Below, in pieces: positions 857 to 61,036 of a DNA stretch of 64,000 nt. The translations under genes and the position numbers were made by a program. Source of the DNA: a virus (taxonomy: Duplodnaviria > Caudoviricetes). The DNA lies in the IMG/VR virus record IMGVR_UViG_3300032038_000045, positions 25,174-89,173 of that record; one strand, 5' to 3'. The notes beneath the pieces were generated by a model, which searched no databases, was not told where the DNA came from, and saw nothing but the letters and a program-made list of their open reading frames with translations. Numbering within the stretch: position 1 is the stretch's first letter; each line of letters starts with the position of its first letter.

Positions 857-2467
857 ATGGCTGAAGTTTTTACAAAGAATCTTGGAAAAGTATGTCTTAC
901 TTGTGATGGTTATTGGGATTCTACCAAATCTTACGAAAGACTTTGCTTAGTTACTGTAGAATATTCTGATGGTAAAGTTGAAGCTTATGTTTCAAGAAAA
1001 GCTGTACCAGCAGGAGTTTCCCCTGTAAAGGGAAGTGTTACTGAGTATTGGCAGATAATTTATACTTGCGCTGGCCATGATGGTGGTGACAGCGATAAAA
1101 AAAAATATAGGCTAACTATAAATACTAATCCAGGTTCTGCAACTGTTAAAATGAATGGTATAGTTGTTTCTTCTAAAACTAAAGAGTTTTATGAGGGAAC
1201 AACTGTTACCGTTGAAGTAAGTGCAAGCGGATATACTACTAAAACAAGAACTTATACTTTAAGTGCTGATGTAACTGATACTATATCGTTGGATGCTATT
1301 ACTACTGTTAAACACAGACTTACTATAAATACTGTTCCTTCAGGTGCTTTTGTATATATGAATAATTCTCTTGTTAGTTCTAAGACAAAAGAATTTGATG
1401 AAGGTACCGTTGTAAATGTTAGAGTTCAGTTATCTGGTTATGGTAGTGAAACGAGAAGTTACACTATGAATACTGATATTACTGATACTATAACATTAAG
1501 TCAGGTACAACCTACTACATATATAGTTACTATTGGAACTCCTACTCCAAGTAATGCTGTAATAAAAGTAGATGGTGTTACTAAACAACCTGGAGATACT
1601 ATTGAAGTAACTGCTGGAACAAGAATAACTGTTACTGCTACTGCAGATGGTTATGAAAATTATAGTCAACAATTTACTATAAATAGTAATAGAACAATAA
1701 CTCCTGTTCTTACAAAAATTCCTGATGTTAGAGTTTTTACTATAGATGGTAATTCAGATTCGTTTACTAAAAATGTAGAATTTGGTACTCAACAAGTTGT
1801 TCTTGATTTTGTTTCTTTATTAAATAATGAAAGTGTAAATGTAGTAGAAGTTACTTCTACTGGCAACTTAGCGGCTGTTGTAAATAATAATACTAAAAAA
1901 ATTACATTAAGTAGAATAGATAGTGCTGCTGGTATAAATGGAACTTCTTCATTTAAACAAAGTGATGATAATAAAGTTATAGTTGTAACTATATCTATGA
2001 ATGAAGAAGGAGAAGCCGTTTATACTTTGACCGCTGATGGAAGTTCTAATGATGTTACAAAGAACATAAATGCTGCTGGTGGAACGATAAATATACCTAT
2101 TGTATCTAAGAAAACTCAAAGTGGAGTTGATACAAATGCAAATTACAGTATTTCTGGTAATGATTTTACTAATAACAATAATGTTGTAAGTATTAATGTA
2201 CCAGCAAATAACAATACTTCTTCGAGAACATACAGTACCACTGTTACTCAAGCTGAATCCGGTAAAACTTTAACTATAACAGTTGTTCAAGCTGGAGTTG
2301 CAGCATATGTAAATGTTGAAGACATTAATGGTAATGAGTTAGAAAATCTTTATTTTACCGCTGATGGTATTCCTTGTGATTCCAATGGAGATCCTCTAAG
2401 TGGTGCTACTCAAGTTGATGGACAAAACATTTATGTTAAATCTAATACTACATGGAGTGTAATTTAA
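857..2467 (+). CDS. fibre/adhesin protein with 3 PEGA-like repeats, a BACON-like domain and a C-terminal half BACON
   Basis: Tandem ~65-aa repeats (RLTINTxP...VSSKTKEFxEGT..V.V..SGY); Thr/Ser/Val-rich beta composition; VPANNNTSSRTYSTTVTQ; ends LYFTADG...VKSNTTWSVI. Confidence 0.75.
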   Translation: MAEVFTKNLGKVCLTCDGYWDSTKSYERLCLVTVEYSDGKVEAYVSRKAVPAGVSPVKGSVTEYWQIIYTCAGHDGGDSDKKKYRLTINTNPGSATVKMNGIVVSSKTKEFYEGTTVTVEVSASGYTTKTRTYTLSADVTDTISLDAITTVKHRLTINTVPSGAFVYMNNSLVSSKTKEFDEGTVVNVRVQLSGYGSETRSYTMNTDITDTITLSQVQPTTYIVTIGTPTPSNAVIKVDGVTKQPGDTIEVTAGTRITVTATADGYENYSQQFTINSNRTITPVLTKIPDVRVFTIDGNSDSFTKNVEFGTQQVVLDFVSLLNNESVNVVEVTSTGNLAAVVNNNTKKITLSRIDSAAGINGTSSFKQSDDNKVIVVTISMNEEGEAVYTLTADGSSNDVTKNINAAGGTINIPIVSKKTQSGVDTNANYSISGNDFTNNNNVVSINVPANNNTSSRTYSTTVTQAESGKTLTITVVQAGVAAYVNVEDINGNELENLYFTADGIPCDSNGDPLSGATQVDGQNIYVKSNTTWSVI

Positions 2468-2480
2468 ACTAAAGTAAATA

Positions 2481-3143
2481 ATGGCAAAACCTTCTTATAT
2501 AACTTGTGCTCCTACAAGTGGGAGTAACAATGGAACTGTAAAAGTTACTTGTACATCTGGATATAAAGGACGTTCTCAAAGAAGTGGTAATATAACAATA
2601 GGTTCAAAATCTGTAGGTGTTACTCAATTTGGTGCGCCACTTTATGTAATTATTACTGCTAATAAAACTACTGCCGATAAAAGCGGTGATACTATAATTA
2701 TTACTGGTAGAACAAATGGTAGAGTTATAAGTGTATCTACGAATAATAGTGCTGTTTTTCCTATTTCTTCTTTAGTTTACAATAATACTAATGGAAGTGG
2801 TTCTGATTCATCTAAAACAGTTACACCTGCTTCTGACCCTGGAGCAAATGAAGAAATAACTTTTACTGCCACAATAAATGTTCCAGCTAATGAAAGCACT
2901 TCTATAAGAAATGGTAGAATAACTGCAAGTGTTCAAGGTGATACTTCTGCACAAACTGCAAGTAATAATATTAACTTGAGCCAGCAAGCTGGAAATGCTA
3001 CGTTAAATGTAAGTCCTACTAATTTATACTTTACTGCAGACGGTGTGCCTTGCAATGCTAATGGTGACGAGATTAGCGGAGCAACTCAGGCAAATGGTCA
3101 AAATATAACTGTTACTTCTAATACTACATGGGAAGTTAGTTAA
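2481..3143 (+). CDS. BACON-domain fibre protein
   Basis: PTSGSNNGTVKVT, DPGA, VPANESTSIRNGRITA and VTSNTTW are BACON-type motifs. Confidence 0.75.
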   Translation: MAKPSYITCAPTSGSNNGTVKVTCTSGYKGRSQRSGNITIGSKSVGVTQFGAPLYVIITANKTTADKSGDTIIITGRTNGRVISVSTNNSAVFPISSLVYNNTNGSGSDSSKTVTPASDPGANEEITFTATINVPANESTSIRNGRITASVQGDTSAQTASNNINLSQQAGNATLNVSPTNLYFTADGVPCNANGDEISGATQANGQNITVTSNTTWEVS

Positions 3144-3154
3144 TTGATTTTACA

Positions 3155-3469
3155 ATGTATGTAGAAACTATTTTATCTTATGTTAGTGAAAGTTTTAATT
3201 TTGCTTATGTTATAACAATTAATATTGTTGTGTATCTTCTCCTTTACGGGGTAGGTTATATTACAAAAAAGGAAATTAAAAAACCTTATAAAATATTAAC
3301 AACAATTATAGTTACTATAATATTTGCATTTATTTATCACTTTACTACTGAGATAACAAATGAACAATTAATTAATAGTTCAATTCTTGCTCCAGTTAGT
3401 TGGGATTGGATTATTAAGCCTATATTACAGAAACTTAAAATAGATTATAATAAAGATGGAGCGTTTTAA
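3155..3469 (+). CDS. putative holin
   Basis: 104 aa, 2-3 hydrophobic segments, charged C-terminus (KPILQKLKIDYNKD). Confidence 0.55.
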   Translation: MYVETILSYVSESFNFAYVITINIVVYLLLYGVGYITKKEIKKPYKILTTIIVTIIFAFIYHFTTEITNEQLINSSILAPVSWDWIIKPILQKLKIDYNKDGAF

Positions 3470-3932: not shown

Positions 3933-3944
3933 TTTTAAATTATT

Positions 3945-4594: not shown

Positions 4595-4605
4595 ATTTTA
4601 ATATT

Positions 4606-4884: not shown

Positions 4885-6248
4885 AACAAATTGTCATACC
4901 TGAAGGAAATGTAATAGCTATTGATGATGAAAATAATGTTAGGATATGGCAAGCAGCTTTTGATGCTATAGTAAATGGAGTTTCTCCTTTAACTTTGCCT
5001 TCTGCTGTTAGAGCAGCTGTAGTTTATCTTAAGCAACAAGGAATTTGTGAACAAAACGGTACTCCTACTCCTACAAGTCCTGTAGATATAAAATGTAATA
5101 ATGGAGTTATAAGAATTAAAGATAGAGAACTTCCTTACGGGTATAGAAGACTTATAGGTATTAATTTTGATGGAAATGTTTTCTATGATACTGGAATGAA
5201 ATTATATGGTAGTGATACTTTAAAGTTTAAATTTAAAGCATCTATTGCCTGTAATGTTTTAGGATGTTATACTTCTGCTTCTGCACAAACTAATTATTCT
5301 TTATATGTAGGAACTTCTGCTACTCCTACTTATCTTAGATATAATGGAGGTTCTTATAATTCTAAAATAGACGCAAATGATTGGTATGATGTAACTATTA
5401 CTCCTACTGGTTCTCAAGGAATGAAAACTGATTCTACTTGGGCAGCCAAATCTTTTACTACAGATTCTGATTTATTAATAGGTAGTACTTCTTATGGAGC
5501 TACTTCTGCAAAATTAACTGGAGCTTTGGAAGGAAATATTGTAGTTCTTGGAAGAGAAACAATTATTCCTTGTAAAAGAGTTTCAGATGGAAAACTTGGT
5601 TATTATATGAAACTTGCAAATAGATTTATAGAAAATCAAGGAACTGGAACTCCTACTTCATTGGGATATGATAATACTTATTATGATGAATTATTTGTTG
5701 ATGGTACTTCTGAAGTTTTAACTCTTAATTCTCAAACTGCTTCTGTTAAAAACTTGTTTGCAGTAGGGGATTATAAAGATGAACAAGATATTATAAGCGG
5801 AAATATAATAAGAAGAGTTAAAATACTTGTTTTAGATGGAGAAACTGAATTAGAAGAAGGTTATGCTTTTAGTGGAGCTAATAATTGTATGATACTTTAT
5901 ATTTACGATGGAATAAATGAAACTTATACTCCTTTATGTACTCATTTTGCTGGTACTACAAAATATGGAAGTTCTATGCCAAATAATAGTATTATTGTAA
6001 GGGTTTCTGGTAATAGACGTACTATTAGTATAAAAAATAATAATTGGTCGAATATACAAGATTATACCAATTTTATGAAAGCTCAATATGAAGCTGGAAC
6101 ACCTGTCATTGTAATTTATTCTCTTGAAACAGAAACTACAGAACAAGTAATTCCTCAACTTCTTAATACTATAGAAGGAGATAATGTTGTAACTGTTACT
6201 GCAGAAGTTTCTAATATTGCTTTGGAAGTTAAATATAAAAGAAATTAG
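4863..6248 (+). CDS. tail fibre / receptor-binding protein candidate with lectin-like beta domains
   Basis: 461 aa, beta-rich; GICEQNGTPTPTSPVDI and YRRLIGINFDGNVFYDTG...GYY segments resemble phage fibre modules. Confidence 0.55.
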   Translation: MLNFAAVKQIVIPEGNVIAIDDENNVRIWQAAFDAIVNGVSPLTLPSAVRAAVVYLKQQGICEQNGTPTPTSPVDIKCNNGVIRIKDRELPYGYRRLIGINFDGNVFYDTGMKLYGSDTLKFKFKASIACNVLGCYTSASAQTNYSLYVGTSATPTYLRYNGGSYNSKIDANDWYDVTITPTGSQGMKTDSTWAAKSFTTDSDLLIGSTSYGATSAKLTGALEGNIVVLGRETIIPCKRVSDGKLGYYMKLANRFIENQGTGTPTSLGYDNTYYDELFVDGTSEVLTLNSQTASVKNLFAVGDYKDEQDIISGNIIRRVKILVLDGETELEEGYAFSGANNCMILYIYDGINETYTPLCTHFAGTTKYGSSMPNNSIIVRVSGNRRTISIKNNNWSNIQDYTNFMKAQYEAGTPVIVIYSLETETTEQVIPQLLNTIEGDNVVTVTAEVSNIALEVKYKRN

Positions 6249-7719: not shown

Positions 7720-8511
7720 ATGGCAAGTATAGAACAACTTGTTTCTGAAATTGCTCATAGTGTTCAGCAAGCGAATAGCATACCCGTAAGGCGTGCTATT
7801 CGCCTTGCTGTTATACATAATAGAAATAAACTTATTAGACAAAGTTTTGAAAGACATAATTATATTGATAAAGTTCTTCAGCAAAGATTTCGTATTTCTT
7901 TAATTCCTTGTCCCGATGGAGATATCAATACTGAATTATTCCTTTACGGGGGAGATTTATATGATAAAAGTTTAGAAGATAGTGAAACTGAACCTACTAT
8001 TCGTAGAAGTGAATATATTGATGAATTTGGAGAAGTACATAAAATTCTTCGTAGTAAACAAAGAGTTCCACGTCCTACAAGATTAGATAATAATCTTCCA
8101 TTTCTTTCTGTAAGAACTACTGGTGTTAGAAATCCAATAGAAATACCTTTTGTTAAAGAAGCTGGAAGCAAATATTATCGTCATCTTCCTGGTATGTGTA
8201 AAAGTATTTCTTATGATTATATCAATCAATATATTTATTTAGATGTTACTAAGAATACTGATTTTATAAATTTAGGTTCAATAATTGTAGAATCTCCTTT
8301 TGAATATCCTACAATAATAGATGATGAAGAAACTGTGTATTCTGGAATACAAGAAGAACATTTCGATGGTAATAAAACTTATACCGCTGATGATGAATTT
8401 ATGATTTCTGAAGATATGATTTATGATATTAAGAAACTTGTTCTTGATGAGTTTAATTCTCAAGTAATTCGAGAAACAAATGAAGTACCAACTCCTAATC
8501 TAATGAAATAA
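7720..8511 (+). CDS. tail ring/tubular protein candidate
   Basis: 263 aa; helical N-terminus, beta body and helical C-terminus; position upstream of the tail stabilisation gene. Confidence 0.5.
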   Translation: MASIEQLVSEIAHSVQQANSIPVRRAIRLAVIHNRNKLIRQSFERHNYIDKVLQQRFRISLIPCPDGDINTELFLYGGDLYDKSLEDSETEPTIRRSEYIDEFGEVHKILRSKQRVPRPTRLDNNLPFLSVRTTGVRNPIEIPFVKEAGSKYYRHLPGMCKSISYDYINQYIYLDVTKNTDFINLGSIIVESPFEYPTIIDDEETVYSGIQEEHFDGNKTYTADDEFMISEDMIYDIKKLVLDEFNSQVIRETNEVPTPNLMK

Positions 8512-10046: not shown

Positions 10047-10964
10047 ATGAATAAAACTACTTATACAACTGTTGAAAGGATTATAGCAAAAATTGATAAT
10101 GACTTTAATCCTAACAATAGTGATTGGATACCTCGAGTTGGTGCTTGGTGTATAGATGCTATGCACCAACTTGATGTTACAATGACAAGTAAAGTTAAGA
10201 AAAAACTTCTTGTTAAAGATAGAGTTGCAAGAAGTGAATGTTGTCTTTCAGACCTTGATCTTACTGTTTATGATGAAAACGGTTGTATAGTTCCTAAAGC
10301 AGGTAGTAAAAGTGGTTGTTGTGGAGCAGCAAATAATGGCTCTATGCAATCTCCCTCTACGGGGAAAGAAGAATTAGTTTCTGGTAATACTCTTTATACT
10401 ATTGACGATAATAGTAGAAATGGTGAAGATGGAGGAGCAGAAACAATGCTTCATCATATGAGAACTCATAGAACAGTTGAACTCGAATATACAAATAGAG
10501 AAGAAACTGTTGATATGCGTGCCCAAAGAATTAATCACAAAGATTATCCTGCTCGATACAATGTTGTTGAGATTTATAAAGGTGGAGGAAGTCAAGGTAG
10601 AAACTATGTAGTTTCTGGAGGATACACTCTTGAACTCAACTATGATGCTGATTATGTTTATATTGAATATGATACTATAGATACAGTAAAAGGAATGGAT
10701 GGAGTTGAATATCCAGTTATTCCTAACAATGGAAAACTTATTGAAGCCATTGTTTATTATTGTATGTATAAAATGCTTTGTAGAGGTTATAAACATCCTG
10801 TATTTAATCTTGCTGCATCTCAATATGGAACAAATCCTTATTATATTTGGATGAATACTAAAGATGAAGCTAAAAGAAGTGTTATTAATGATGGCATAAA
10901 TGAAGATGTATCTAAGTTGTTTAGGAGCAGCTTATTTATATCAACCTTTTATCCTCGTGGATAG
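10047..10964 (+). CDS. tail tubular/ring protein (P22 gp4-like, crAss Ttub)
   Basis: 305 aa directly upstream of the stabilisation gene; helical ends with a low-complexity insert. Confidence 0.6.
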   Translation: MNKTTYTTVERIIAKIDNDFNPNNSDWIPRVGAWCIDAMHQLDVTMTSKVKKKLLVKDRVARSECCLSDLDLTVYDENGCIVPKAGSKSGCCGAANNGSMQSPSTGKEELVSGNTLYTIDDNSRNGEDGGAETMLHHMRTHRTVELEYTNREETVDMRAQRINHKDYPARYNVVEIYKGGGSQGRNYVVSGGYTLELNYDADYVYIEYDTIDTVKGMDGVEYPVIPNNGKLIEAIVYYCMYKMLCRGYKHPVFNLAASQYGTNPYYIWMNTKDEAKRSVINDGINEDVSKLFRSSLFISTFYPRG

Positions 10965-14000: not shown

Positions 14001-15336
14001 AAATACTATAACTGAACCTAAAAACTCAGTCGATTTATTTGAAGAAGTTAATGGCAGTCAAGATTTCTTAAATCCTCAAACTTGGGTCAATTATGACAAG
14101 AATACTGAATATCAAAATGAATTTAATAAACGTATTCAGCGTTCCAATGTTATTCAAGATGAAAGTATAGAAAATTCTTGGCGTTTCTTCCCCGTAGAAG
14201 GATATAAGGATATTACTGAGAACAAAGGTGTTATTACTAATCTTGTTGCTATAGGTACTACAATGCTTGCTCATACTGAACATTCTTTATTCATGTTTGA
14301 TAGAGATAATACTTTACAAACTAATGATAAACAAGTTCAGTTGGCTATGCCTGATATATTCGACGTAGATTATAAAGAAGTTTTCACTTCTGAATTAGGT
14401 ATAGCTGGTTTACAAGATAGTAAAGCATATATTGTAGATGTATTTGGTTATATATTTTATGATAATGATTCTCATCAACTTTATAGATTTGGAGAAAAAC
14501 AATTAAATATATTAGATTTTAACCTTATACAATTCTTATTTAAATATCGTCCATATAAAGTTAGATTCGCTAATGATAAGAATGCTGATAGAATCTTATT
14601 AAATATTCATTATATGGATGGTGGAAATTCTAAAGAAATAACTCTTAGTTTTAATACTTCTATAAATAAATCAATTTCGTTGCATACTTATAACTTTGAG
14701 GAGTCTACAAATACGAAAAATAATGTATATTTGTTTAAGAACTTAAAGAATAATCCTACTAACATATATTATATAAATAATGATTTTAATAATGGAAATA
14801 GAAATAGAGTAAATGATACAAATAATAATTATTTGAAGAATATTGAATATAATAGATTTGAAAATAATTACGGTTCTTTTGGTGTTCAAGAATTTTCTCA
14901 AATAGATATAATTATAAATAATGCTTATGAAGTTATAAAATATTTAGAATTTATTACTTATAAACTTTATGAAGTTACAGAAGTAGAAAACAATGATAAT
15001 GTTTTCTTCCCCGTAGAGGAAATGAGAGTGCCTTATGCTGGAACTCAAATTAGAGTTTATAATGGTTCTAACTCCGCTGATAGAGTTGATACTGGTTGGA
15101 TAGATATTAAAAATGCTAATTGGCAAAATAAAAATAACTCCCAAAAGCCTATGGAATATAAACTTCCTTATTGGCATAATGGTAATTGGAATTTCAATTA
15201 TCTTCGTGATAAATTAAATCATGGTGATTCTCGTTTATGGGGCAATTATTTTATAGTTTCTATAAGATTCGGTAGAGAAAATGTTAGAACTGAATTTGAA
15301 ACTTTAGGTTATGCAATTAGTAAAAGCGAACAATAG
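11080..15336 (+). CDS. tail stabilisation / muzzle protein (P22 gp10-like, crAss Tstab)
   Basis: 1418 aa; NSWRFFPVEGYKDITENKGVITNL and GYIFYDND...LY segments; size and position match crAss muzzle genes. Confidence 0.75.
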   Translation: MPDIVKELNLNKHPKNCKDLSLIYAKNVRVSNDLSCLQSEESILKHDDLMNKLTHKTIVGYIPCNKEIVFVTIDGNKPVIGTKINAYLERYNELENRCECVYTKYKYYGGEIKGTFTYNINDELILAISEFDYDNNLNLPLHTINIGKWDGEVVDGALDYEDLTTNPKVRIPEVTNYQYVAGTAYKGWYHFFIRFKINNRDYTKWFPLGFPILIDEVFKSAVVKYFQPYDDINSTARKANERDERIDTVFGGDAYVDTSSKYDICSKTVNLNINFNSQDNKSIYQIGFICTTKKYTKAFKTSDIELSDRQTNFIVNFNILDEYSVEEFLLQNFNYYNVKNIINYKNKLYIANYKDSLFDYETLSQFVRNNIQINLTTGASSAEQDSYDTEYETEIEEPASVAGYRLIVDVTVFATRVSDGVEIAYRNFKADLLNSKILAKDYPQGVYPENADSYWDYEDYTDFRIESTFTLYDENNQETQLGGDIDITGGTQSFNSSAGYYPPLIGLADYKDYYTTPANELRWQTSRGVSTQYTLTINGTVKNIQLDCFFVKTGDKIAQGIGWGLKYLKKIDYGSYYSSSTDYVVVEQNTYKPISQNTNTNTTITPSADSNYDFNFLRNATLIPGETYKIYIHFVNDYGEISDGIFISDINVPKNTTVGELYRISAVVNALPTNCVGYFLSYEKLQKKKSYSGLLVYENNIYKFFSGEVDIFDSIDLQGNKANILGTVSIDDLVGKGIGQSGIAIDLSIFENKYYFWNKVVDNANYNYLGSMDIKSIELIAADDFSKGNNGKGSYLKLNFSSGFGLTPGQYYICDIYNDNSGQYKNEIKTLIKFTNVIYSTGSRTFNNGYSGRITKNDILIYNKNGFVLDSSINTLYTNDFYPYYSSYIIEESGNARFKRNYFQREHNPSIDLSPNPMLQGNNVVPAPLVVVSLYEYSDIILETKQINNAPQKYPLNTTVPRGDEDYATPTFVINTITEPKNSVDLFEEVNGSQDFLNPQTWVNYDKNTEYQNEFNKRIQRSNVIQDESIENSWRFFPVEGYKDITENKGVITNLVAIGTTMLAHTEHSLFMFDRDNTLQTNDKQVQLAMPDIFDVDYKEVFTSELGIAGLQDSKAYIVDVFGYIFYDNDSHQLYRFGEKQLNILDFNLIQFLFKYRPYKVRFANDKNADRILLNIHYMDGGNSKEITLSFNTSINKSISLHTYNFEESTNTKNNVYLFKNLKNNPTNIYYINNDFNNGNRNRVNDTNNNYLKNIEYNRFENNYGSFGVQEFSQIDIIINNAYEVIKYLEFITYKLYEVTEVENNDNVFFPVEEMRVPYAGTQIRVYNGSNSADRVDTGWIDIKNANWQNKNNSQKPMEYKLPYWHNGNWNFNYLRDKLNHGDSRLWGNYFIVSIRFGRENVRTEFETLGYAISKSEQ

Positions 15337-15339
15337 AAT

Positions 15340-15870
15340 ATGAAATGTGTTAGTAGAAAAAAGGCTTGGATAGGTGCAGCTATTAGTGCTGCTGCTGGTT
15401 TAGCTAATGCAGCAATTCAAGCAAGACAAAAGAGAAAAGCTCAAGAAGAAGCTCAGAGACAAGCTAATGAAGATGCTATAATGCGGTCTCAAGCTAATTT
15501 GACAGATGCTTATAATAATCAAGACTATTTAGATAATTATTATGATAGAGTTCAGCTTATACCTCAATTCCTTTACGGGGGAAGAAAAAAAGCTACTCTC
15601 GGTACTATAGTTGAAGGTATTGGCAACTTCTTGAAAACTGACAATGGTAGAGAACTTTTAAATAGTGGAATATCTTCTTTAGGTAATATTGCAGGTAGTG
15701 CAATATCTTCTGCTCCAACTACTTCAATTTATTCTCCAAATGCTTTCAAACCCACTGTTAAAACTTCTCTTGTTGATAAAAGTTATAATCTTAATAATTC
15801 TAATATTGAACCTCAGTATTACGATAGGTTTTCGCAAGCCAAGTTTGGTAAGCGAGTAAGAGGATGTTAG
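15340..15870 (+). CDS. small cargo/ejection protein
   Basis: Ala/Gly hydrophobic helix WIGAAISAAAGLANAAI plus coiled coil; follows the muzzle gene. Confidence 0.6.
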   Translation: MKCVSRKKAWIGAAISAAAGLANAAIQARQKRKAQEEAQRQANEDAIMRSQANLTDAYNNQDYLDNYYDRVQLIPQFLYGGRKKATLGTIVEGIGNFLKTDNGRELLNSGISSLGNIAGSAISSAPTTSIYSPNAFKPTVKTSLVDKSYNLNNSNIEPQYYDRFSQAKFGKRVRGC

Positions 15871-15985: not shown

Positions 15986-15992
15986 ATTTTTT

Positions 15993-18341: not shown

Positions 18342-18350
18342 TATATTGCT

Positions 18351-42773: not shown

Positions 42774-43823
42774 TTAAGAATTTAAAACAAGATTACCGAG
42801 AACTTCTATCTTATTGGCTCTGTCCCCGTAAAGGAGAGAATCCATCCGTTTAAGACCTTCATTATTTTCCATATTGGAATAATAACCAGTTACAGCATTA
42901 TAGACACCCCAACCAGTACCTTCAAATTCTTTTTGACCAGGGCCGTTATGATAATACCATTCAATATTAGCAATTTGTTTAAGTTTTTGAGTAGAAATGT
43001 TTGCAAATTCAATAGCATTCCAATTTCTATCAAAGATATGTTTATAAGAATATCCTCCTTGATTAAGAGCATCTTTCTCCGCTTTACTAAATACTAAATC
43101 ACCAATAATAGTTTGGAATTTAATATCACTAACTTTCTTTTTAGCCATAGCAATATAAGCTTCTTGTAAATCATCGCTCATAACTCTACAAATACCAAGA
43201 AGTTCTTGTGCAGTGTTAATATTATTATTAACATTCTTAGTATGTCTAAAAGAAACATAATTAGTAGAATTTCTAATAGCAGCATTCAATGTATTTTCAC
43301 AAATAACTCTAATTGGAGTAAACAATATTTTAACACCAGTACTTCCATCATGAGAATTTGTAAAAACTAAATAAGACTCAACAGGGTCTCCTTTGACCAT
43401 AATATCATTAGGAAGTTTAGCAGAAACAAAAATTCTTTCTCCATAACCAAAAGAACCAGCGGTTTGCCAAATGGCAGAATTTTTCCCAATGGCATTATCG
43501 AAGAACTTAAATGCTTCAACATTTTGAACTGGAGTATATCTTTCCTTAACTATTCCCAAAGGAACTTTGGTATCATCTCTACATACAGCATAACCATTGG
43601 GAACTTGCATAAAAAGTTCATTACCAAGAAGTCTATGTTCAAGTCCTTCAGCTATCATCACATCTCCCTCTACGGGAAATTTAGAATAAATCTCTTGTTT
43701 ACTAACTGTCCAATCAAGGCCAGCTTTAGTCATAACTTCCTGTGAAGTTATACAATCTTCAACATTTGAAACACCTTTAAATCTAAAAGGTGCTCCTTTG
43801 ATTTTTACGAAACTCATATTCAA
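42774..43823 (-). CDS. DUF932 / TIGR03299 family protein
   Basis: AGLDWTV, YTPVQNVEAF.FFD, TAGSFGYGERIF, NSHDGS, TPIRVICENTL. Confidence 0.9.
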   Translation of the reverse strand: MNMSFVKIKGAPFRFKGVSNVEDCITSQEVMTKAGLDWTVSKQEIYSKFPVEGDVMIAEGLEHRLLGNELFMQVPNGYAVCRDDTKVPLGIVKERYTPVQNVEAFKFFDNAIGKNSAIWQTAGSFGYGERIFVSAKLPNDIMVKGDPVESYLVFTNSHDGSTGVKILFTPIRVICENTLNAAIRNSTNYVSFRHTKNVNNNINTAQELLGICRVMSDDLQEAYIAMAKKKVSDIKFQTIIGDLVFSKAEKDALNQGGYSYKHIFDRNWNAIEFANISTQKLKQIANIEWYYHNGPGQKEFEGTGWGVYNAVTGYYSNMENNEGLKRMDSLLYGDRANKIEVLGNLVLNS

Positions 43824-45440: not shown

Positions 45441-46475
45441 TTATTTCAATTCATTTTTATGATTAGTAATAACATCAGGAAAATTCTGATAAATAATATT
45501 CTCAACTTCTTTAGCTATAACTTTAGCATTAGGATGAGGTTTACCAGTTTTTCCATAAAGTCTTAAATCAAGGAAATGAATCCATTCTTCTATTCTATAT
45601 GTATAAATACATTTAGTAGCAGTATCAAGAGGTAACATTCCTCTTGCATCTTCAGGTTTCATTCCTTTTTTAATAGCAGCAAGGTATCTCTCTTCTGCAT
45701 CAAGACAAGTATGAACCCATTCATCAGCTGTACAATAACATAAAGAGGAACCATCTTCTTGAGGAATACCCCAAGCACCAAAAGGTTTCTCTTTATTATC
45801 TCGATTTACCCCGTAAAAGAAGATGGAGTTCTCGCATTCACAAACTATTCTTCCATCTTTTTTATTAACTACAAGATAAGGATATTCTTCATCAGTATCA
45901 GAATCAATTAATGCAGCCAACCAATGAGGTTCAACAAAAGATACATTTCCATTATACTTATCTTTTGAGAAATTACAATATCTTGTGGATTGTTCACAAA
46001 TATTGTTTGGAGAAATTCTATTAAGTTCTCTTGAAGTAGAAATTTGAGTAACAACTTCAAATGTAAATCTTATCAATTTTACAACTTCTTCTACACAATT
46101 ATATTTATTAGCAAAAGCTAAGAAATTAAGTTCGTTTACTTGATATTTTGCTAAAACTCCCATCCAATCATTTTCTCTTTTAAATTGAGAATTAACAGAA
46201 ACAAATATTACTTTATTCTTTACATTTTCATAATATCCACAATAAGGAGAATAACAGAATAAATATTTAATTTCTTCACTAATTAGAGGTGTATTAATAA
46301 CATAATATGAAGTACCATGACGAAAAGGACTTCTATGTCCAGCTTTCCATAATTGCTCAAGCCATTCTACAGTACCTTGTTTATTAGAATTATAACATAT
46401 AGAGGCAGCATATCCTATTTGAGAAACATTATTTCCTAAATCTATATGTTTAACTGTCGCTGGAATTATCTTCAT
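45441..46475 (-). CDS. thyX: FAD-dependent thymidylate synthase
   Basis: GHRSPFRH, SRELNR...EQSTRYCNFS (RHR motif altered to RIS), PEDARGMLP, HFLDLR...PHP. Confidence 0.9.
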   Translation of the reverse strand: MKIIPATVKHIDLGNNVSQIGYAASICYNSNKQGTVEWLEQLWKAGHRSPFRHGTSYYVINTPLISEEIKYLFCYSPYCGYYENVKNKVIFVSVNSQFKRENDWMGVLAKYQVNELNFLAFANKYNCVEEVVKLIRFTFEVVTQISTSRELNRISPNNICEQSTRYCNFSKDKYNGNVSFVEPHWLAALIDSDTDEEYPYLVVNKKDGRIVCECENSIFFYGVNRDNKEKPFGAWGIPQEDGSSLCYCTADEWVHTCLDAEERYLAAIKKGMKPEDARGMLPLDTATKCIYTYRIEEWIHFLDLRLYGKTGKPHPNAKVIAKEVENIIYQNFPDVITNHKNELK

Positions 46476-47514: not shown

Positions 47515-48212
47515 ATTAATATAAACTTTATTATATTTTTTATATGATAAAATAAATTAGCTTCTTTAACAAGTCTACCAATTTTATCTCGTTCAACCAA
47601 ATCTAATGGAATATCATAATCACTCGGCAACCTATTGTCAGTCGGATTAATTATTATTCCCCCGTAAGAGAAGTATTTCTTAAACTCAAGAAATTCTTGT
47701 AGTTTATTAATTCCTTTAACAATACAAATTCTATTTATAAAAGAAATATCACTTATCTTTCTAAAATGTTTATATAAATCAGCTTTACCAAAATTTATAC
47801 GAAGTACAGTTTCATATATTTCTTTCAAGTCTTTAATCTTTAATACAGGATTTCTAATAGAATCAATTAATAATCTTTTACAATCATCTGGTGTTTTAAC
47901 ATCATCAGCATATACTATATCATTCAATATAGTTATTTCTATATCATCTATTATTCTATGTTCTTGAAAGTTATACCATCTATTTCTTCTAATATGTTTT
48001 TCTTCAAAACCAAAAACATCAAGAAATATCCTCTCTCTTTCTTTATTTATATCATAAATTCTTCTATTAATAGAAGATATATTTCCACTTTTATCAAATA
48101 AGTAATTATTATATGTTGCAGCAGTATATCCTTTAGTATAAATATAATTAACCATATTTATTATATCAGTATCATCATTTACTACTATTATTTGATAGTC
48201 TTGCATACACAA
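47511..48212 (-). CDS. hypothetical protein (ATG at 48206 is the likely start)
   Basis: 233-aa ORF; track start is TTG. Confidence 0.65.
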   Translation of the reverse strand: MCMQDYQIIVVNDDTDIINMVNYIYTKGYTAATYNNYLFDKSGNISSINRRIYDINKERERIFLDVFGFEEKHIRRNRWYNFQEHRIIDDIEITILNDIVYADDVKTPDDCKRLLIDSIRNPVLKIKDLKEIYETVLRINFGKADLYKHFRKISDISFINRICIVKGINKLQEFLEFKKYFSYGGIIINPTDNRLPSDYDIPLDLVERDKIGRLVKEANLFYHIKNIIKFILI

Positions 48213-48401: not shown

Positions 48402-48749
48402 TCATACAATACGGAAAACATCAGCGTTATCAATAGTTTCAACATAATCAACAATTATGTTTCCTCTATCTTTACATTCATTAATTACATAATCTTTTAT
48501 TTCTCCTAAAAGTTTAACCTTACATTTATTGTACATATTAGTTTCACATACTCTACAATTATCATCAAAAGCTGTATCGCTTAGAATAAGATAATATTGA
48601 GTTATACCTTTTTGTGAATCATAATTTGCAGCTTCAACAAAAAACTTGTATTTCCTCTTTACGGGGAAAATAAAGTAATTAAGTTTAAAATCGTAATAAG
48701 GTTTTTTATGATTACTAATAGGATTTATAATATTATATTTTGCTATCAT
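48402..48749 (-). CDS. hypothetical protein
   Basis: 115-aa ORF coupled to ligase. Confidence 0.6.
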   Translation of the reverse strand: MIAKYNIINPISNHKKPYYDFKLNYFIFPVKRKYKFFVEAANYDSQKGITQYYLILSDTAFDDNCRVCETNMYNKCKVKLLGEIKDYVINECKDRGNIIVDYVETIDNADVFRIV

Positions 48750-49993
48750 AGTTTTTCAAGTTGTTTAAGTCTAACTTCCTTTATATGGAAAGGAACTTGA
48801 TTAACTCCACTTCTTTCACCAAAGGAAATTAGAAGTTTTCTACCTATTAGAGTATCTCTATTATAAAGACATTCACGTTGATAACTAAAGTTTCCACCTA
48901 TATGACATTCAAATGTTTCATCGTTAATATCATTTTTACATTTGAATAATGGAATATCATCACGCTTATTACCTTCAGGATAAATATCAATAATTTCAAA
49001 TTCTCCATCAGTAGTTTTCTTAAACTTAATCATAGAAGAATTACGTTTACCAAATTGATATTCAGCCTCAGGGTCTCTAAGAATAAGACCTTCAAAACCT
49101 TTATCAATGAAAGAATCTCTCATTTTCACAGCATCATTACCATTTTCAACAATTCTATGAGGTAAATATTCTATAACTGCTCTATGAGTTAAATGAGTTT
49201 GAATACTTCCAAAATCAGTAATAAAATGATAAAGATAAGTATCAAGAATTTTAAGTCTTTCTATTTGAGTATAATCTTCACAAGCTATATCATAACACCA
49301 AAATTGAACAAGTTTATTCTCAGGACATCTTGGGTCTTTGACAGCATGATTAATTTCATTTACAGAATATCCAGGAATATAAACTTCTCCATCCAATGCC
49401 CAACCTTCATGAATCATATTTTCAAGAAGTTCATCAGGAAGTAATAAAAGAAGATTAGATTCAAGATAACCAAGACTTTTCCAAATAATACCTTCTCTAC
49501 TCTGAAACTGAAGATGTTTAGTAGCAAACAAACCTCCATCTTCATAAGCAGTTATAAAACATCTAAGACCATTAATTTTCCATTGTGCAAAATAGTAAGA
49601 TGTTTTATTAAATAGTTTATTATTTTCATTATCGTAAGTTTTGGCAAGCATAGGAAGAAGTTTACCTTCTGCATCAGTTCTATCATCTGAAAGATAAGTA
49701 GAAAGCCAAGAATGCAACTCTCCTCTACGGGGAAGGTCCTTATCATCTCGTATTTCATTAAGATATTTATAACCTTGTTTTCTTTTCTGATTAATACGAG
49801 ACATTATTTCATCTTCAGGAGGTCTATTAGTAGGACTAACATAAACATTAATTGTTTTATCTAATATACCATGATAAACCTTTATTGTATTTTCAGAATA
49901 TTTAACTGCGTGCCAAACACATATATTGCCTCTATTATCTTTTCTGTAAAGACTATTTAGATAATTTACATTATCTATTGCATTTTCATTCAT
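48746..49993 (-). CDS. ATP-dependent DNA ligase
   Basis: Motif I variant QWKINGLRC, LDGEVY, WCYD, EGLILR, MIKFK; OB-fold C-terminus. Confidence 0.9.
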   Translation of the reverse strand: MNENAIDNVNYLNSLYRKDNRGNICVWHAVKYSENTIKVYHGILDKTINVYVSPTNRPPEDEIMSRINQKRKQGYKYLNEIRDDKDLPRRGELHSWLSTYLSDDRTDAEGKLLPMLAKTYDNENNKLFNKTSYYFAQWKINGLRCFITAYEDGGLFATKHLQFQSREGIIWKSLGYLESNLLLLLPDELLENMIHEGWALDGEVYIPGYSVNEINHAVKDPRCPENKLVQFWCYDIACEDYTQIERLKILDTYLYHFITDFGSIQTHLTHRAVIEYLPHRIVENGNDAVKMRDSFIDKGFEGLILRDPEAEYQFGKRNSSMIKFKKTTDGEFEIIDIYPEGNKRDDIPLFKCKNDINDETFECHIGGNFSYQRECLYNRDTLIGRKLLISFGERSGVNQVPFHIKEVRLKQLEKL

Positions 49994-51273: not shown

Positions 51274-52402
51274 AATTATTTATATAATTAATAGATTGTT
51301 TTATATTCTCTGAAATAATAGTTATATTATTTTTTGCTCTATATTCTGCAAAATCTTTACATCCAGATTCTATAGGAATAAATATAGGAATAATATTATA
51401 AACTTTTCTTAACCAATTAGCTTCAACTATACCTACTCTATCATTATCCATAAGGCTAATTAATTTACCATCAATAGTCAATTTAGACTTTAACCATTCG
51501 TATTCATAATTACGAAGTTTATAAGTTTCGTGAGGTATATTAATAACACCAATTTTGATATTAGGAATTTCCCCGTAAGGGAAGATTGATTGTATGGTGC
51601 AGCCAATAGATAATCTATCTTTTGTAGATTTAGTTATTACAATATAATTATAATCATTTCTATCAAGATTATATATACCTTCAAGATGATTACAATTACA
51701 AATAAATTTTGAAGCAGAATGTTTATCTCTATTTGGGAAATATAGTTTTATATTGTTTACACCATTTCTATCTTTTCCAAGAAAATAAGCATAACAAGGG
51801 TCTGAAATTTTATAATAATATTTAGGTTCAGGATTAATATTTTTATCTATATAATATTGTTCTATTGGATAAACAAAATTAATATTGAGATGTTGAAGAT
51901 TAACACCTATTTCTTTCCAATAGATTTCATCGTATTCATTCCAATTTCTTACAACAAGGTCTATAATAGTTTTAGTATTTCTACTAACATTTATAGCATC
52001 TTTAATTTGTTGTGTAAGCGTTGTATCTATTTCATCGCCATAAAATATATCTTTAAATGTAAAAGTTATATGGCGAAGGATTTTCATAAATCCTTTCTTA
52101 TCATTGACTGATATTTTTTCTTTATTTATAATAGATAGAATATAACCAACTGCATCAAAACAATCACCCCAGAAGTAGCCTGCAAAATCCCTCATTTTAA
52201 GTTTTCCTTTATTATCATAACGAAAACCTACAGTTGGACGTCTATCTATTCTAATTGGAGAAAGTATTAATTCACCACTATCTATACAATGTTGTATAAC
52301 TGAAATTGGAAGATTAAAATATTTACTAAAAATATTAACTTGACTAACTTTATCGAGAATATATTTTTTAGATAAATTATTAGAATTAATACTTCTACCC
52401 AT
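51218..52402 (-). CDS. DnaG-like (Toprim) primase, crAss type
   Basis: SPIR.DRRPT, GDCFD, KLYFP, ITKSTKD, MDNDRVG, KDFAE. Confidence 0.85.
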   Translation of the reverse strand: MGRSINSNNLSKKYILDKVSQVNIFSKYFNLPISVIQHCIDSGELILSPIRIDRRPTVGFRYDNKGKLKMRDFAGYFWGDCFDAVGYILSIINKEKISVNDKKGFMKILRHITFTFKDIFYGDEIDTTLTQQIKDAINVSRNTKTIIDLVVRNWNEYDEIYWKEIGVNLQHLNINFVYPIEQYYIDKNINPEPKYYYKISDPCYAYFLGKDRNGVNNIKLYFPNRDKHSASKFICNCNHLEGIYNLDRNDYNYIVITKSTKDRLSIGCTIQSIFPYGEIPNIKIGVINIPHETYKLRNYEYEWLKSKLTIDGKLISLMDNDRVGIVEANWLRKVYNIIPIFIPIESGCKDFAEYRAKNNITIISENIKQSINYINNYESIKHLWYEKKNSIRPF

Positions 52403-55346: not shown

Positions 55347-55377
55347 CAAATATAGGTAATTAAATTGAAACTACAAA
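55347..55377 (-). promoter_or_regulatory. Bacteroidota sigma-70-type promoter
   Basis: On - strand TTTG, 19-nt spacer, TATATTTG (TAnnTTTG consensus), upstream of the RecT-like gene. Confidence 0.65.
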
Positions 55378-56747
55378 ATAATATCTCCGGAAATTTCATC
55401 AATCTTCATATTTTTTGTGAAGTTTTCGTTATGTACCGCTATAAGAGTATTTTCTCTTTCTCGCATCATAGCTCTTTCTTCAGAAGTATTTTCGCAATAA
55501 ATCTTGTACATAATTAGAGGAGTAGGTAATTTAATCTTATCAAATTTGTTTTTAAATGCAAATATATTACTAAGAAAGGGAGTAGTATAAATAAGAATAT
55601 CAGCTTCAGTTTTTATAGAGTTATCAGAACTTCCTTTCATTATTAATACATTGCAATAATTAGCATTAAATAGTTTAACATTATTATTAGATAAAGCAGC
55701 AGATTTAAATATCTTAGGTTCTCCTTTATGTTCACCATTTTTATAACATACTACTTCACCATTTTTATCAGTTAAATAAGAATCTTCTAATTCATTATGA
55801 TAACCTACATTGTTTATATCATTATCAAATAAATATTTTGAAAGTTTATTACAAAATTCTCCTCTTTCACATACTACAATTATTTTCTTATTAGCATGAT
55901 TATTAATTATATCTTTTATAATTTCAAGTTTAGCATTATTATCTGTTAAAAGCTTTTTTCTAAGATGTGTAATATTGAAAATAGTATTAACTCTTTCTCT
56001 AATTGCTATAGGATTAAAAACAGCATCTAATTGTTTATTATATTCAACACTCATATCAAGATGAGAATCCCAACCATTAAATTTAGCTACTTCAATACAA
56101 CAATCCATAGCACTCATTTGTCTAATTGGGTCACCAACTCTACATCTATCAATAGTATTGAAATCATTAAATAAACGCATACTATCTTTTACATAATTTT
56201 CATATTTATCATATTGTTCTCTATCATCTTTATTAAGATAAGCACAACATCTATATTCCTCTACGGGGGAATAAATAGAGTTTCTAATAAGATTTTGTTG
56301 AGTATTTCTTTTTTCAGTTAAATCTATACAAGGAACAATTTCCTTAATCTTATTTATAAAAGTATTATCAAGTTCATTTTTAGTAAAGATAAATAAAGCA
56401 AATTTACATTTACGTCCATAATCTGTTAGAGTTCCAATATGTTTATTTAATCCAACAGTTATAACACAATCAAAACTTTGTTTAATAGTATCTTTGTATT
56501 TAAATGTAACTACTCTTAAATTATCCTTATATTTATCTTTGAAAGAATTTGTTTTTACAAGATTTTCCCAATCTACAACAAATAGAAGTATTTTAATATT
56601 AGGTCGTTTTTCAACTAATTTAGCAATTATTTCTTCTACGAGAATATAAGGGTTTAGTGGGGGTTCGATATAACAATATCCTCTACCTTTATTTCTTTGA
56701 AAAGCCCCATTCAACTCTTCACTTATTTTAAGATATGCGTTATTCAT
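55371..56747 (-). CDS. SF2/SNF2-like helicase fold with degenerate catalytic motifs
   Basis: C-terminal RecA2-like features (K...I..II, IIVVCE, GYHN, F) but no GKT or DExx visible. Confidence 0.55.
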   Translation of the reverse strand: MNNAYLKISEELNGAFQRNKGRGYCYIEPPLNPYILVEEIIAKLVEKRPNIKILLFVVDWENLVKTNSFKDKYKDNLRVVTFKYKDTIKQSFDCVITVGLNKHIGTLTDYGRKCKFALFIFTKNELDNTFINKIKEIVPCIDLTEKRNTQQNLIRNSIYSPVEEYRCCAYLNKDDREQYDKYENYVKDSMRLFNDFNTIDRCRVGDPIRQMSAMDCCIEVAKFNGWDSHLDMSVEYNKQLDAVFNPIAIRERVNTIFNITHLRKKLLTDNNAKLEIIKDIINNHANKKIIVVCERGEFCNKLSKYLFDNDINNVGYHNELEDSYLTDKNGEVVCYKNGEHKGEPKIFKSAALSNNNVKLFNANYCNVLIMKGSSDNSIKTEADILIYTTPFLSNIFAFKNKFDKIKLPTPLIMYKIYCENTSEERAMMRERENTLIAVHNENFTKNMKIDEISGDIIL

Positions 56748-59001: not shown

Positions 59002-60457
59002 AACTTAATATTAATTCTTTTCTTGTTCTACTACACGCAACATAAAGTCTTCTTAGCATTTCTTCATAATCAGCATACATTTGTCCAGTAGAGGTAAAAA
59101 TCATATCATTTAAGTCTACAAAAACATTCTCATAGGTAGAACCTTGACTTTTGTGGCTGGTGATTGCAAAAGCATAATCAATATCTCTACTATAAAGAAT
59201 TTGAGAACCTTTCTTTATATTAGTTAATATAAGATATTGTTTTTTAAAATCATAATATGCTTTCCACCTATTAGCTCTAACTCCACCTGTAGCTGTTTTA
59301 GCATCAGATATTAGATTTTGTATAACTTCTATATATTTTAATATAGTATATTTATCTCTATGGTCTATAACAAATATAGGTTTAGTAATAGTTCCTCCAT
59401 TTACTTTTTGGAATTTTACAAGGAAACCTTTAAAGTTATAATTAGGTTCAACATAATTGACTAAATCCTTAATAATATATTCTTCACTATTGTTAAGAAT
59501 AATATCATTAAATTCGTCAACTGTTGTTTCATAACTCATAACCAAATCGTTCTTTGTAAGAATATTCTTATTAGCATCTTCTATAATAATATTTCTTATA
59601 AAATTATTCCAAGAAGTAACACAAACATTTGTATAAGCAATAAGTTTATACATTTCTATATTTTTAGTATATTCTTCATCATTGAATCTTACACTAACTA
59701 AATTAGAAAATTGTTGAGCACCAACTATAGAAAATCCTTCTCCAAGTTCATTATAATTAGATACTCCAATATGTTTTGAAATATAATTTATAAACTTATG
59801 AGACTTGTATTTTATATCTTCTCTTAAATAATCGAGAAGTAATAAAGTTGGATTAGTTTCTTGTTGTCTAACAATTTCAGTTAATTCATAAACTTTATTG
59901 CATTTAATAAAAGCTGTACTTTTGTGTTCCCTTACGGGGGAAAGTTGAGCATTATCTCCAATGAAAAGAAGCTTAATATTATGTTCCCTACATTTATTAA
60001 TAATATAAGTAACAAGAGAAGCATTTAACATAGAAGCTTCATCACATATTAATAATTCTATATTTTGTAACTTTGGAGTAGAAATAGGAGTAAATGCTGG
60101 ATTATTATAATCAAAATCTTCTATATTAAGATTTAATCTAAAACCAAAAGTAGATTGAATTGTTTCAACTTTAAGACCTACAGAATTACTGAAAACTCTA
60201 CAAGCTTTATGAGTTGGAGAACAACACTTTATAGCAGAAAGAGCTAAATTACATTTACTTACAACAAATTTTGTAACAAATGTTTTACCTACTCCACCAG
60301 CTCCTATAAGACCGTATACGCTTTTACTTTCATCATATGGAGAATTTATGAATTCTACTAAACCTTCAACAGCTCTTGTTTGACCATTTGTTAATGTAAT
60401 AGATTGTTTATTTTCAGTTCTACCTTTACCAACTATATTATAATTAAATTCCTCCAT
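58991..60457 (-). CDS. SF1 (Dda/RecD-like) DNA helicase
   Basis: GAGGVGKT, DEASM, IGDNAQL, EIVRQ, HKSQGSTY, YVACSR. Confidence 0.92.
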   Translation of the reverse strand: MEEFNYNIVGKGRTENKQSITLTNGQTRAVEGLVEFINSPYDESKSVYGLIGAGGVGKTFVTKFVVSKCNLALSAIKCCSPTHKACRVFSNSVGLKVETIQSTFGFRLNLNIEDFDYNNPAFTPISTPKLQNIELLICDEASMLNASLVTYIINKCREHNIKLLFIGDNAQLSPVREHKSTAFIKCNKVYELTEIVRQQETNPTLLLLDYLREDIKYKSHKFINYISKHIGVSNYNELGEGFSIVGAQQFSNLVSVRFNDEEYTKNIEMYKLIAYTNVCVTSWNNFIRNIIIEDANKNILTKNDLVMSYETTVDEFNDIILNNSEEYIIKDLVNYVEPNYNFKGFLVKFQKVNGGTITKPIFVIDHRDKYTILKYIEVIQNLISDAKTATGGVRANRWKAYYDFKKQYLILTNIKKGSQILYSRDIDYAFAITSHKSQGSTYENVFVDLNDMIFTSTGQMYADYEEMLRRLYVACSRTRKELILSFGR

Positions 60458-60989
60458 TTTTATATTTCTCTATTACAGGTTTATATAATTCATAATTTTT
60501 AATATAATCTTTAATAGAATCTTTACAAGCTTGATGTTTCCAATCAGTTTTAGTATCTTTTAAATCAAATAAAATAATTCCCGTAACATTATTTTTAACA
60601 AGATTTCCTTTACATAAAACACCAGCCATAAAAGGCATATAAATATTATCATTATATTTCTTGTCTCCTCTTTTTAAATAATTAATTTCGTTAACAGAAA
60701 TAAATTTATTATTTATAATACAAGTACTATATTTAGGTTTATCACTTTTAATAAAATAAGAATCATTAGTAAATTTATAAAAACAATTTTCTAATGTTAA
60801 AGTAACAAAATTAATAGGAACAACATACCATAATTTTTCTAAATCAAAAAAGCAAACTGCGACTACATTTTTTTCAACAACAGTATAAAGTTTTTCTTTT
60901 ATAGTTTTAGTTTGTTTTTTAACTTTATTAAACCCCGAAGGTTTAAATGAAAAACTAATAGCCATAACAATAATATTTATAGTGCTCAC
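60444..60989 (-). CDS. hypothetical protein (ATG at 60965 is the likely start)
   Basis: 181-aa ORF; track start is GTG inside a hairpin. Confidence 0.6.
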   Translation of the reverse strand: MSTINIIVMAISFSFKPSGFNKVKKQTKTIKEKLYTVVEKNVVAVCFFDLEKLWYVVPINFVTLTLENCFYKFTNDSYFIKSDKPKYSTCIINNKFISVNEINYLKRGDKKYNDNIYMPFMAGVLCKGNLVKNNVTGIILFDLKDTKTDWKHQACKDSIKDYIKNYELYKPVIEKYKNGGI

Positions 60990-61036
60990 TTCGTTCGCAC
61001 ACCTTCCCCGTAAAGGGATGATGCAGCATTAGCTTT

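Follow-up and report, generated by a model that had tools for sequence, protein, structure and literature searches.

We analysed a 64,000-nucleotide stretch of viral DNA (the window), bases 25174-89173 of the 89,173-bp virus record IMGVR_UViG_3300032038_000045, and the short GC-rich DNA word, with the core CCCCGTA, that recurs along it. The record has a GC content of 29% and a 127-bp terminal repeat that is an assembly overlap. Its terminase large subunit (TerL) is 62-70% identical to those of Carjivirus communis (the prototype crAssphage), cr3_1 and ctbg_1, which places the genome in the Crassvirales, family Intestiviridae. We refer to it as G000 where it must be told apart from the related virus records G001, G003, G004 and G005. 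Genes in the window run rightward to ~41 kb and leftward beyond. A preliminary description of the window had counted 23 copies of CCCCGTA, 12 on the plus strand and 11 on the minus strand, and had interpreted them as a cis-acting signal array in the form of hairpins written into coding sequence; our count and coordinates agree with it. These strict copies are listed below with the open reading frame (ORF) that holds each one and the peptide that is read there.

3239..3254, minus strand: antisense in ORF 3155-3469, LYG
7939..7954, minus strand: antisense in IHF-like ORF 7720-8511, LYG; within an insertion relative to orthologues
10352..10367, minus strand: antisense in ORF 10047-10964, PSTG
14187..14202, plus strand: sense in ORF 11080-15336, FPVEG; G003 keeps the peptide with other codons
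15006..15021, plus strand: sense in ORF 11080-15336, FPVEE; G003 has the word at the orthologous place, G004 and G005 a degenerate form
15568..15583, minus strand: antisense in ORF 15340-15870, LYG; indel region
20666..20681, minus strand: antisense in ORF 18351-21170, PYTG; the only strict copy with T after GTA
24053..24068, plus strand: sense in ORF 21180-27734, SPVRE
27455..27470, plus strand: sense in ORF 21180-27734, SPVEG
28962..28977, minus strand: antisense in the giant RNA polymerase (RNAP)-like ORF 27864-41081, LYG
32141..32156, minus strand: antisense in ORF 27864-41081, SLTG; G001 has the word at the corresponding place
32708..32723, plus strand: sense in ORF 27864-41081, HPVEG
37748..37763, plus strand: sense in ORF 27864-41081, SPVEG
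38603..38618, plus strand: sense in ORF 27864-41081, VPVGD; the weakest 3' half
42821..42836, plus strand: antisense in the DUF932 gene 42774-43823, LLYGD
45806..45821, plus strand: antisense in the ThyX gene 45441-46475, FYG
47657..47672, plus strand: antisense in ORF 47511-48212, SYG
48654..48669, minus strand: sense in ORF 48402-48749, FPVKR
49720..49735, minus strand: sense in ligase-like ORF 48746-49993, PRRG
51568..51583, plus strand: antisense in the primase gene 51218-52402, PYG; word kept in place in G003, G004 and G005
56256..56271, minus strand: sense in SNF2-like ORF 55371-56747, SPVEE; kept in place in G001, G003 and G005
59927..59942, minus strand: sense in the Dda-like helicase gene 58991-60457, inside motif GDxxQLxPV, SPVRE
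61003..61018, plus strand: intergenic, between ORFs 60444-60989 and 61037-61504

The number of copies lies far above chance, as had been proposed. In 100 dinucleotide shuffles of the window, CCCCGTA occurred 0.37 times on average and at most 4 times. The whole genome holds 32 copies, 16 on each strand (the strands are balanced in all relatives as well), compared with a mean of 3.0 (maximum 6) after synonymous-codon shuffling within genes and 2.4 (maximum 5) after codon permutation within genes; both of these codon-aware nulls retain the 2 intergenic copies. A maximal-order Markov k-mer screen was uninformative because sub-words of the motif are enriched too, and an order-2 background worked. 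The base after CCCCGT is A in 32 of 33 occurrences in the genome, and when the copies are aligned in their own orientation they share YTY at positions -3 to -1 and RA-GG-RA at +7 to +12, followed by a weaker GAT, which bears out the pyrimidine-before, purine-after bias noted earlier. The unit is therefore an asymmetric ~16-nt word, YTY-CCCCGTA-RA-GG-RA, and not the 7-mer alone. Composition asymmetry around the sites does not extend beyond ~20-40 nt.

A weight matrix built on the word, with a cut-off of 12 bits, finds 39 sites in the genome and 0-1 in Markov-simulated genomes. With it we re-examined the relaxed copies in the preliminary description: those at 1020, 17786, 24021, 36498 and 43666 score above the cut-off, those at 5133, 8656 and 39837 look like weaker members, and those at 7783 and 17914 do not resemble members. 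The largest gap had been put at ~4.7 kb, but strict copies in the window lie up to 5.1 kb apart (15574 to 20672). The relaxed and possible degenerate copies are as follows.

1018..1033, plus strand: relaxed copy CCCTGTAAAGGGAAG, 21.8 bits
17785..17800, minus strand: relaxed copy GCCCGTAGAGGGATG, 20.5 bits
24020..24035, minus strand: relaxed copy GCCCTGTAGAAGGAG, 13.8 bits
36496..36511, minus strand: relaxed copy GCCCGTAAAAGAAGAT, 17.2 bits
43665..43680, minus strand: relaxed copy TCCCGTAGAGGGAGAT, 20.4 bits
8652..8667, plus strand: possible degenerate copy GCCCGTAAAGAAGAT, below the 12-bit cut-off; it would fill a long plus-strand gap
5130..5145, minus strand: possible degenerate copy ACCCGTAAGGAAGTT, below the cut-off
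39836..39851, minus strand: possible degenerate copy GCCCGTATGAGGATC, below the cut-off

The word is written mostly through genes. Thirty of the 32 strict copies in the genome lie inside ORFs, 13 sense and 17 antisense, and the copy with its core at 61006 is the only intergenic one in the window, as previously stated. It is read as xPV(E/K/R), PRRG, x(S/L/Y)TG or xLYG, in four frames and on both strands, and all of the peptides listed earlier (LYG, PVE, PVR, STG, PYG, YTG, LTG and PRRG) were found again; the frame that would give TAA or TAG is never used by any genic copy. Pooled over 8 genomes, 179 of 227 copies (79%) are intragenic, and the 48 intergenic copies amount to a 3-fold intergenic enrichment. 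The intragenic copies favour neither gene direction, 79 running with the gene and 100 against it (P=0.13), in line with the earlier claim, and we infer that this split fits the two sense and three antisense frames available to the word.

Comparison with relatives shows how the word comes to stand where it does. The TerL peptide GVPRR is encoded with CCC CGT AGA in G000 and CCT AGA AGA in relatives, and at 42824 (LLYGD, DUF932) synonymous changes in a conserved peptide create the word. In the ligase-like gene at 49726, G003, G004 and G005 also carry the word at the orthologous place, but there it reads PVE, compared with PRRG in G000. For 7 of the 30 genic sites, one or more relatives carry the word at the orthologous place; among the seven are three strict copies that belong to replication genes, at 49726 (ligase-like), 51571 (primase) and 56262 (SNF2-like). 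Of the site at 59933, in the helicase gene, G003 retains the core only (CCCCGTAAATGAG). The remaining genic sites are lineage-specific and often lie in indel-rich linkers. Between closer relatives the core is held firmly: it is identical at 30 of 33 aligned sites in G003 and cr3_1 (91% average nucleotide identity, ANI), where ~16 would be expected, and at 17 of 17 in G004 and G005 (94% ANI), and in both pairs motif identity exceeds flank identity. The four reading frames, the synonymous creation of sites, the change of frame at 49726 and the conservation of the core all show that selection keeps the word as DNA and not as peptide, as the preliminary description had argued.

Scanning viral contigs with one extended variant of the word returned many AT-rich contigs of 40-93 kb. 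CCCCGTARRGG occurs 29, 27, 16, 7 and 8 times in five whole records, with a reversed control at 0, and it occurs 16 times in p-crAssphage, 29 in cr3_1, 10 in ctbg_1 and 11 in crAss002; pattern counts for CCCCGTA are 28 in cr8_1 and 36 in cr110_1. In a k-mer enrichment screen, the top enriched 8-mer belongs to the word in 9 of 9 Intestiviridae genomes, each lineage having its own flanks or transitions in the core. The ~24-nt form sGyTwkACyCCCCGTrGAGGATGGA occurs 31 times in p-crAssphage, crAss002 has ~29 copies of TTCCCCCrTArAGGAG, cr271_1 has 17 of aGCTCCCCCGTAGAAGArATG, and G004 and G005 share the form aCTGCCCGTAGAGGGAAT. Density is ~1 per 3 kb in most genomes of the family. The word is thus an Intestiviridae family trait, at ~30-40 copies per genome, with lineage-specific dialects. 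Together with its conservation at orthologous sites and its independence of frame and gene direction, this enrichment in relatives upholds the earlier view of a cis-acting signal array under selection in coding sequence.

Outside the family the word drops to control level. Pattern counts are at control level in Steigviridae (crAss001, IAS virus and phi14:2), Suoliviridae (cr10_1, cr118_1, cr7_1 and cr4_1) and the Crevaviridae genome cr127_1, and the k-mer screen, which covered the three Steigviridae genomes, cr10_1, cr118_1, cr4_1 and cr127_1, found no comparable genome-wide word in the Steigviridae and Suoliviridae among them. Two of these genomes hold repeats of their own. crAss001 (MH675552) contains CTCCAGAAG 29 times and CTCCAGAAGG 12 times (z ~18-19), probably a coding repeat, and its poly-A/T runs are strongly enriched. 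cr127_1 (NC_055886.1, 26% GC) has a longer GC-rich repeat in ten copies, with no sequence relation to the Intestiviridae word; three sets of these copies are opposite-strand pairs 170-560 bp apart.

cr127_1 repeat TGGCCACAAGGGCGAGAGGTGTTCCGAA: 1776, 11357, 11919, 19706, 28705, 28872, 42047, 42233, 59326, 82343

We also examined five Bacteroides and Phocaeicola genomes: B. xylanisolvens (the crAss002 host), B. cellulosilyticus, B. intestinalis, B. finegoldii and P. vulgatus, which is a reported host of p-crAssphage (PMC10983915). The word is at control level in all five: CCCCGTARAGG occurs 0-6 times per 5-7 Mb (reversed control 4-8), and CCCCGTA 283-406 times (control 240-494).

The copies are evenly spaced, and each orientation forms an array of its own. 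With the strands combined, gaps between strict copies in G000 have a coefficient of variation (CV) of 0.59 (P=0.0006) and a minimum of 564. For the 39 matrix sites of the same genome, the CV is 0.39 on the minus strand (P<5e-5) and 0.61 on the plus strand (P=0.02). Same-orientation gaps have CVs of 0.26-0.45 in G003, p-crAssphage, crAss002 and cr8_1, and on one strand of G001, G004, G005 and cr271_1 (P<=0.003, mostly <=0.001). The 263 normalised same-strand gaps pooled from nine genomes have a CV of 0.46, compared with 1.0 for a random process, and a gamma shape of 4.7; the per-strand statistics come from about ten genomes, some of them related. Among neighbours less than 400 bp apart, none have the same orientation and 24 have opposite orientations. 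Orientation also alternates beyond chance (runs tests reach z values of up to 3.7, or ~5 over the independent genomes together), and the phase of plus copies within minus intervals is uniform (Kolmogorov-Smirnov P=0.11), so that the two arrays are independent, barring a small excess of pairs. Alternation is genome-wide and without a skew switch, the window holding 7 plus and 7 minus copies in its plus gene block and 5 plus and 4 minus copies in its minus block. In this the word differs from KOPS, the polar words of FtsK, whose skew switches at a defined locus. The description of the word as orientation-independent therefore stands with respect to genes and not otherwise: since each orientation forms a separate evenly spaced array, orientation matters. 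This even tiling of each strand is a new finding. Our search of the literature on crAss motifs, nicks and primase turned up no description of the word, and the preprint on a phage-plasmid lifestyle for p-crAssphage does not mention it (PMC10983915).

The closest neighbours form convergent pairs. All 10 of the pairs less than 110 bp apart are convergent, and the intergenic ones fold as long hairpins of -27 to -73 kcal/mol with interiors that are mutually unrelated in sequence. p-crAssphage (BK010471.1) has three convergent doublets, at 22901-22945, 28077-28190 and 95745-95882, two of which enclose AT-rich, internally palindromic DNA adjoining the two RepL genes, and at one of these two, the doublet upstream of the forward-strand repL, a preprint predicts an origin (PMC10983915). 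The sole close pair in G000 lies in ORF 21180-27734 of the window (24020-24068), where 24 nt separate the core of the degenerate minus copy from that of the strict plus copy (24056). The two copies point away from each other, so that the pair is divergent, whereas the tight pairs of relatives are convergent.

Single copies are a different matter. The preliminary description had taken the word itself to be a hairpin, and some G000 copies, such as 51568-51584, can make a 5-6 bp stem (TTCCC-CGTAA-GGGAA). Predicted DNA folds of 25-nt windows are weak, however, averaging -1.9 kcal/mol in G000 and -0.3 to -1.5 kcal/mol in relatives. The flanks show no covariation, chimeric sites with swapped 5' flanks folding as well as the originals (P 0.14-0.96), and the dialects of p-crAssphage, G001 and cr271_1 have essentially no stem. 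The apparent stem in G000 is a by-product, because the C run faces a G-rich purine run. An N4-type hairpin promoter needs a stable, covarying stem of 5-7 bp, which the word lacks, and that short single-stranded DNA or RNA hairpins are the recognised object is very improbable.

The family replication module comprises a small primase (phrog_12622), a Dda-like SF1B helicase, PolB, an SNF2-like ATPase, RecT, SSB, a ligase, DUF932 and a Gp157 Gam-like protein; the primase and the Dda-like helicase are both encoded in the window, and no ring helicase is among the listed genes. The primase has no match in the PDB by sequence search, and an AlphaFold model from four sequences reached a predicted local distance difference test (pLDDT) score of 44, too low for the model to be of use. 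The two proteins put forward earlier as binders, the IHF-like protein at 8511 and the "AbrB-like" protein at 53512, showed no link to the word; the latter (53512-54279) gave no Pfam, PHROG, PDB or Atlas lead and belongs to no recognisable family. In a tblastn comparison of G000 proteins between Intestiviridae and Steigviridae, nearly every gene was too diverged to score.

Several other features of the window and its relatives stand apart from the word. Where the two gene blocks converge (41108-41150), a GC-rich hairpin is flanked by runs of A and T (AAAAAAGGCGTACTACC...GGTAGTACGCCTTT); it looks like an ordinary bidirectional terminator and is not made of the CCCCGTA word. An IMP dehydrogenase / GMP reductase-like gene (46450-47514, minus strand; PF00478, E 2e-44) lies in a nucleotide-metabolism block and has no tblastn homologue in the other crAss genomes compared. 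The record G002 (IMGVR_UViG_3300045988_115360; 86,776 bp) is a mirror-image assembly, a ~43 kb fragment joined to its own reverse complement, in which motif positions pair as x and L+1-x on opposite strands (5331 plus with 81446 minus, 7396 minus with 79381 plus, and so on). Three tRNA genes stand at the end of the leftward block.

62083-62154, minus strand: tRNA Gln-TTG
62705-62777, minus strand: tRNA Glu-TTC
63812-63897, minus strand: tRNA Leu-TAA

Programmed single-strand nicks on both strands, with a phage nickase cutting at the word and a phage ligase resealing, would suit a signal that is strand-specific and evenly spaced on each strand with same-strand copies never close, and an ATP-dependent ligase is conserved in the family. 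The nicks of T5 and phiKMV-like phages are likewise phage-encoded, sequence-defined, strand-specific marks repeated along a genome, but known phage nick systems mark one strand only, at 4-10 sites, and this word occupies both. The annotated genes of p-crAssphage include no recognisable nickase other than an intron HNH, and cutting both members of the convergent pairs 37-60 bp apart would leave staggered double-strand breaks; we regard nicking as unlikely. Duplex sites for a nucleoid, partition or packaging-organiser protein (ParB-like or IHF-like), at which presence alone matters, are a shade less probable again. An asymmetric word of 16-24 nt whose flanks differ by lineage is the usual mark of a DNA-binding protein that co-evolves with its sites, the copies in G000 are evenly spaced overall, and p-crAssphage has been proposed to live as a phage-plasmid (PMC10983915). 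Such sites should carry random strand labels, and what we see instead is per-orientation regularity and alternation (combined z ~5), with opposite copies as near as 37 bp and same-strand copies never so. Moreover, crAss families without the word also have annotated IHF-like genes.

A promoter, terminator or pause signal for the phage giant RNAP or a host polymerase would also be polar; the hairpins of the intergenic convergent pairs could stop transcription from both sides, and intergenic copies are over-represented. This is nonetheless improbable for a word that is mostly intragenic with no gene-direction preference, because half of such promoters would drive antisense RNA and nearly half of such terminators would abort mRNAs, among them the mRNA of the RNAP gene, which is 13 kb long and holds 6 copies; single sites moreover have neither a stable stem nor a T tract. 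It is highly unlikely that the copies are footprints of a tiny mobile element (miniature inverted-repeat transposable element, MITE; repetitive extragenic palindrome, REP; or solo terminal repeat) or of a host signal (Chi or uptake sequence). Inverted pairs do resemble MITE ends and the doublets of REPs and bacterial interspersed mosaic elements (BIMEs), which contain GTAG and form long intergenic hairpins when convergent. But REP/BIME sequences are extragenic, palindromic and spread by REP-associated tyrosine transposases (RAYTs) in bacterial chromosomes, and the word is mostly intragenic and non-palindromic and arises through point substitutions in conserved codons, not by insertion; pair interiors are unrelated, and no transposase or RAYT-type gene is annotated in p-crAssphage. 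Closest to the word in anatomy are the uptake signal sequences (USS) of Pasteurellaceae and the DNA uptake sequences (DUS) of Neisseriaceae, which share its density, in-frame peptides and dialects: they have a 10-12 nt core with weaker flanks, occur at ~1 per 1-3 kb equally on both strands with spacing more even than random, use preferred frames in genes, form intergenic inverted-pair hairpins, and turn over at constant density. They differ in belonging to a competent bacterium with uptake machinery, where this word belongs to a 90-kb phage whose hosts are without it and is regular on each strand. The lack of any enrichment in the hosts rules out host Chi, uptake sequences and host REP-like elements. 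Host Chi was also rejected on the dialects of 16-24 nt, which differ among crAss002, p-crAssphage, cr271_1, G004 and G000; a host Chi would be an invariant word of 5-8 nt common to the phages of one host.

We favour, as somewhat better than an even bet, a phage-specific, polar ~16-nt DNA word that tiles each strand and is met directionally by a phage-encoded tracking machine. Strand-wise tiling favours polar options over a simple duplex-binding protein: a word whose two orientations are tiled separately would be met directionally, by a machine that moves on DNA and not by a protein merely sitting on the duplex. The dialects and the absence of the word from hosts in turn suggest a reader that is phage-encoded and co-evolving. 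On this model selection keeps a copy every ~4-6 kb on each strand separately, at places where the encoded protein can accommodate it, and the word would be read in one direction by a machine that tracks along the DNA with a reach of a few kilobases; the reader would co-evolve with the word, and each lineage would have its own dialect for that reason.

As to what such a tracking machine does, our tentative first choice is that the phage replisome uses the word as a signal for loading or priming, a reading that fits the origin-side pairs in p-crAssphage. Primase and primosome sites (T7 5'-GGGTC/TGGTC, the phiX174 primosome assembly site (PAS) and plasmid single-strand initiation (ssi) sites) are likewise strand-specific template signals with Okazaki-scale spacing, and the phage encodes a primase and a non-ring helicase beside conserved copies of the word; primase sites are far more frequent, however, and PAS and ssi are long hairpins that occur at only one or two places. 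Second, and doubtful, comes a private Chi-like "self" signal by which a nuclease-helicase would be tamed. Chi sites (RecBCD/AddAB) are closest to the word in logic, as oriented, over-represented words at ~1 per 5 kb per orientation that act only when a translocating enzyme meets them from one side, but they measure 5-8 nt and are replication-skewed, and the word is 16-24 nt, unskewed and variable between sister phages. Equally speculative, and on balance doubtful, is a "self" barcode, by which a phage helicase-nuclease or replisome would accept only DNA that carries its own dialect in the right orientation every few kilobases.

Several points weigh against the favoured explanation and its variants. 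The strict copies of G000 are only weakly regular per strand (CV 0.72 and 0.71), and the per-strand signal appears once relaxed copies are added. The orientations do not switch at the origin, which priming signals should do if replication simply ran in both directions from a single origin. Known primases need only 3-5 nt, and known Chi sites belong to a host enzyme and are host-enriched, unlike this word. The phage also encodes the Gp157 Gam-like nuclease inhibitor, which counts against the Chi-like variant. No protein was identified as the reader of the word. RepL, which adjoins the p-crAssphage pairs, was rejected as a candidate: its family, PF05732, is absent from G000, G001 and G003, so RepL is not the reader.

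The Intestiviridae include the prototype crAssphage, the most abundant known human-gut phage, whose replication and lifestyle are debated. A word of 16-24 nt at ~30 copies, tiled per strand and constraining dozens of proteins, points to a central and unrecognised DNA transaction, and identifying its reader would open a way into the replication or self-recognition of crAss phages. It also offers a clean test case of selection writing a non-coding signal through coding sequence. If the barcode idea were true, the phage would spare its own genome, whereas DNA of the host and of competing crAss lineages would be broken down or not replicated; rivalry among co-infecting relatives would have left its trace in the fast-changing dialects, and the word would be a virus-owned identity code of the Chi or uptake-sequence kind. 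Dialects may set which of these phages can recombine or compete, and synthetic recoding or engineering of such phages would need to respect the word.

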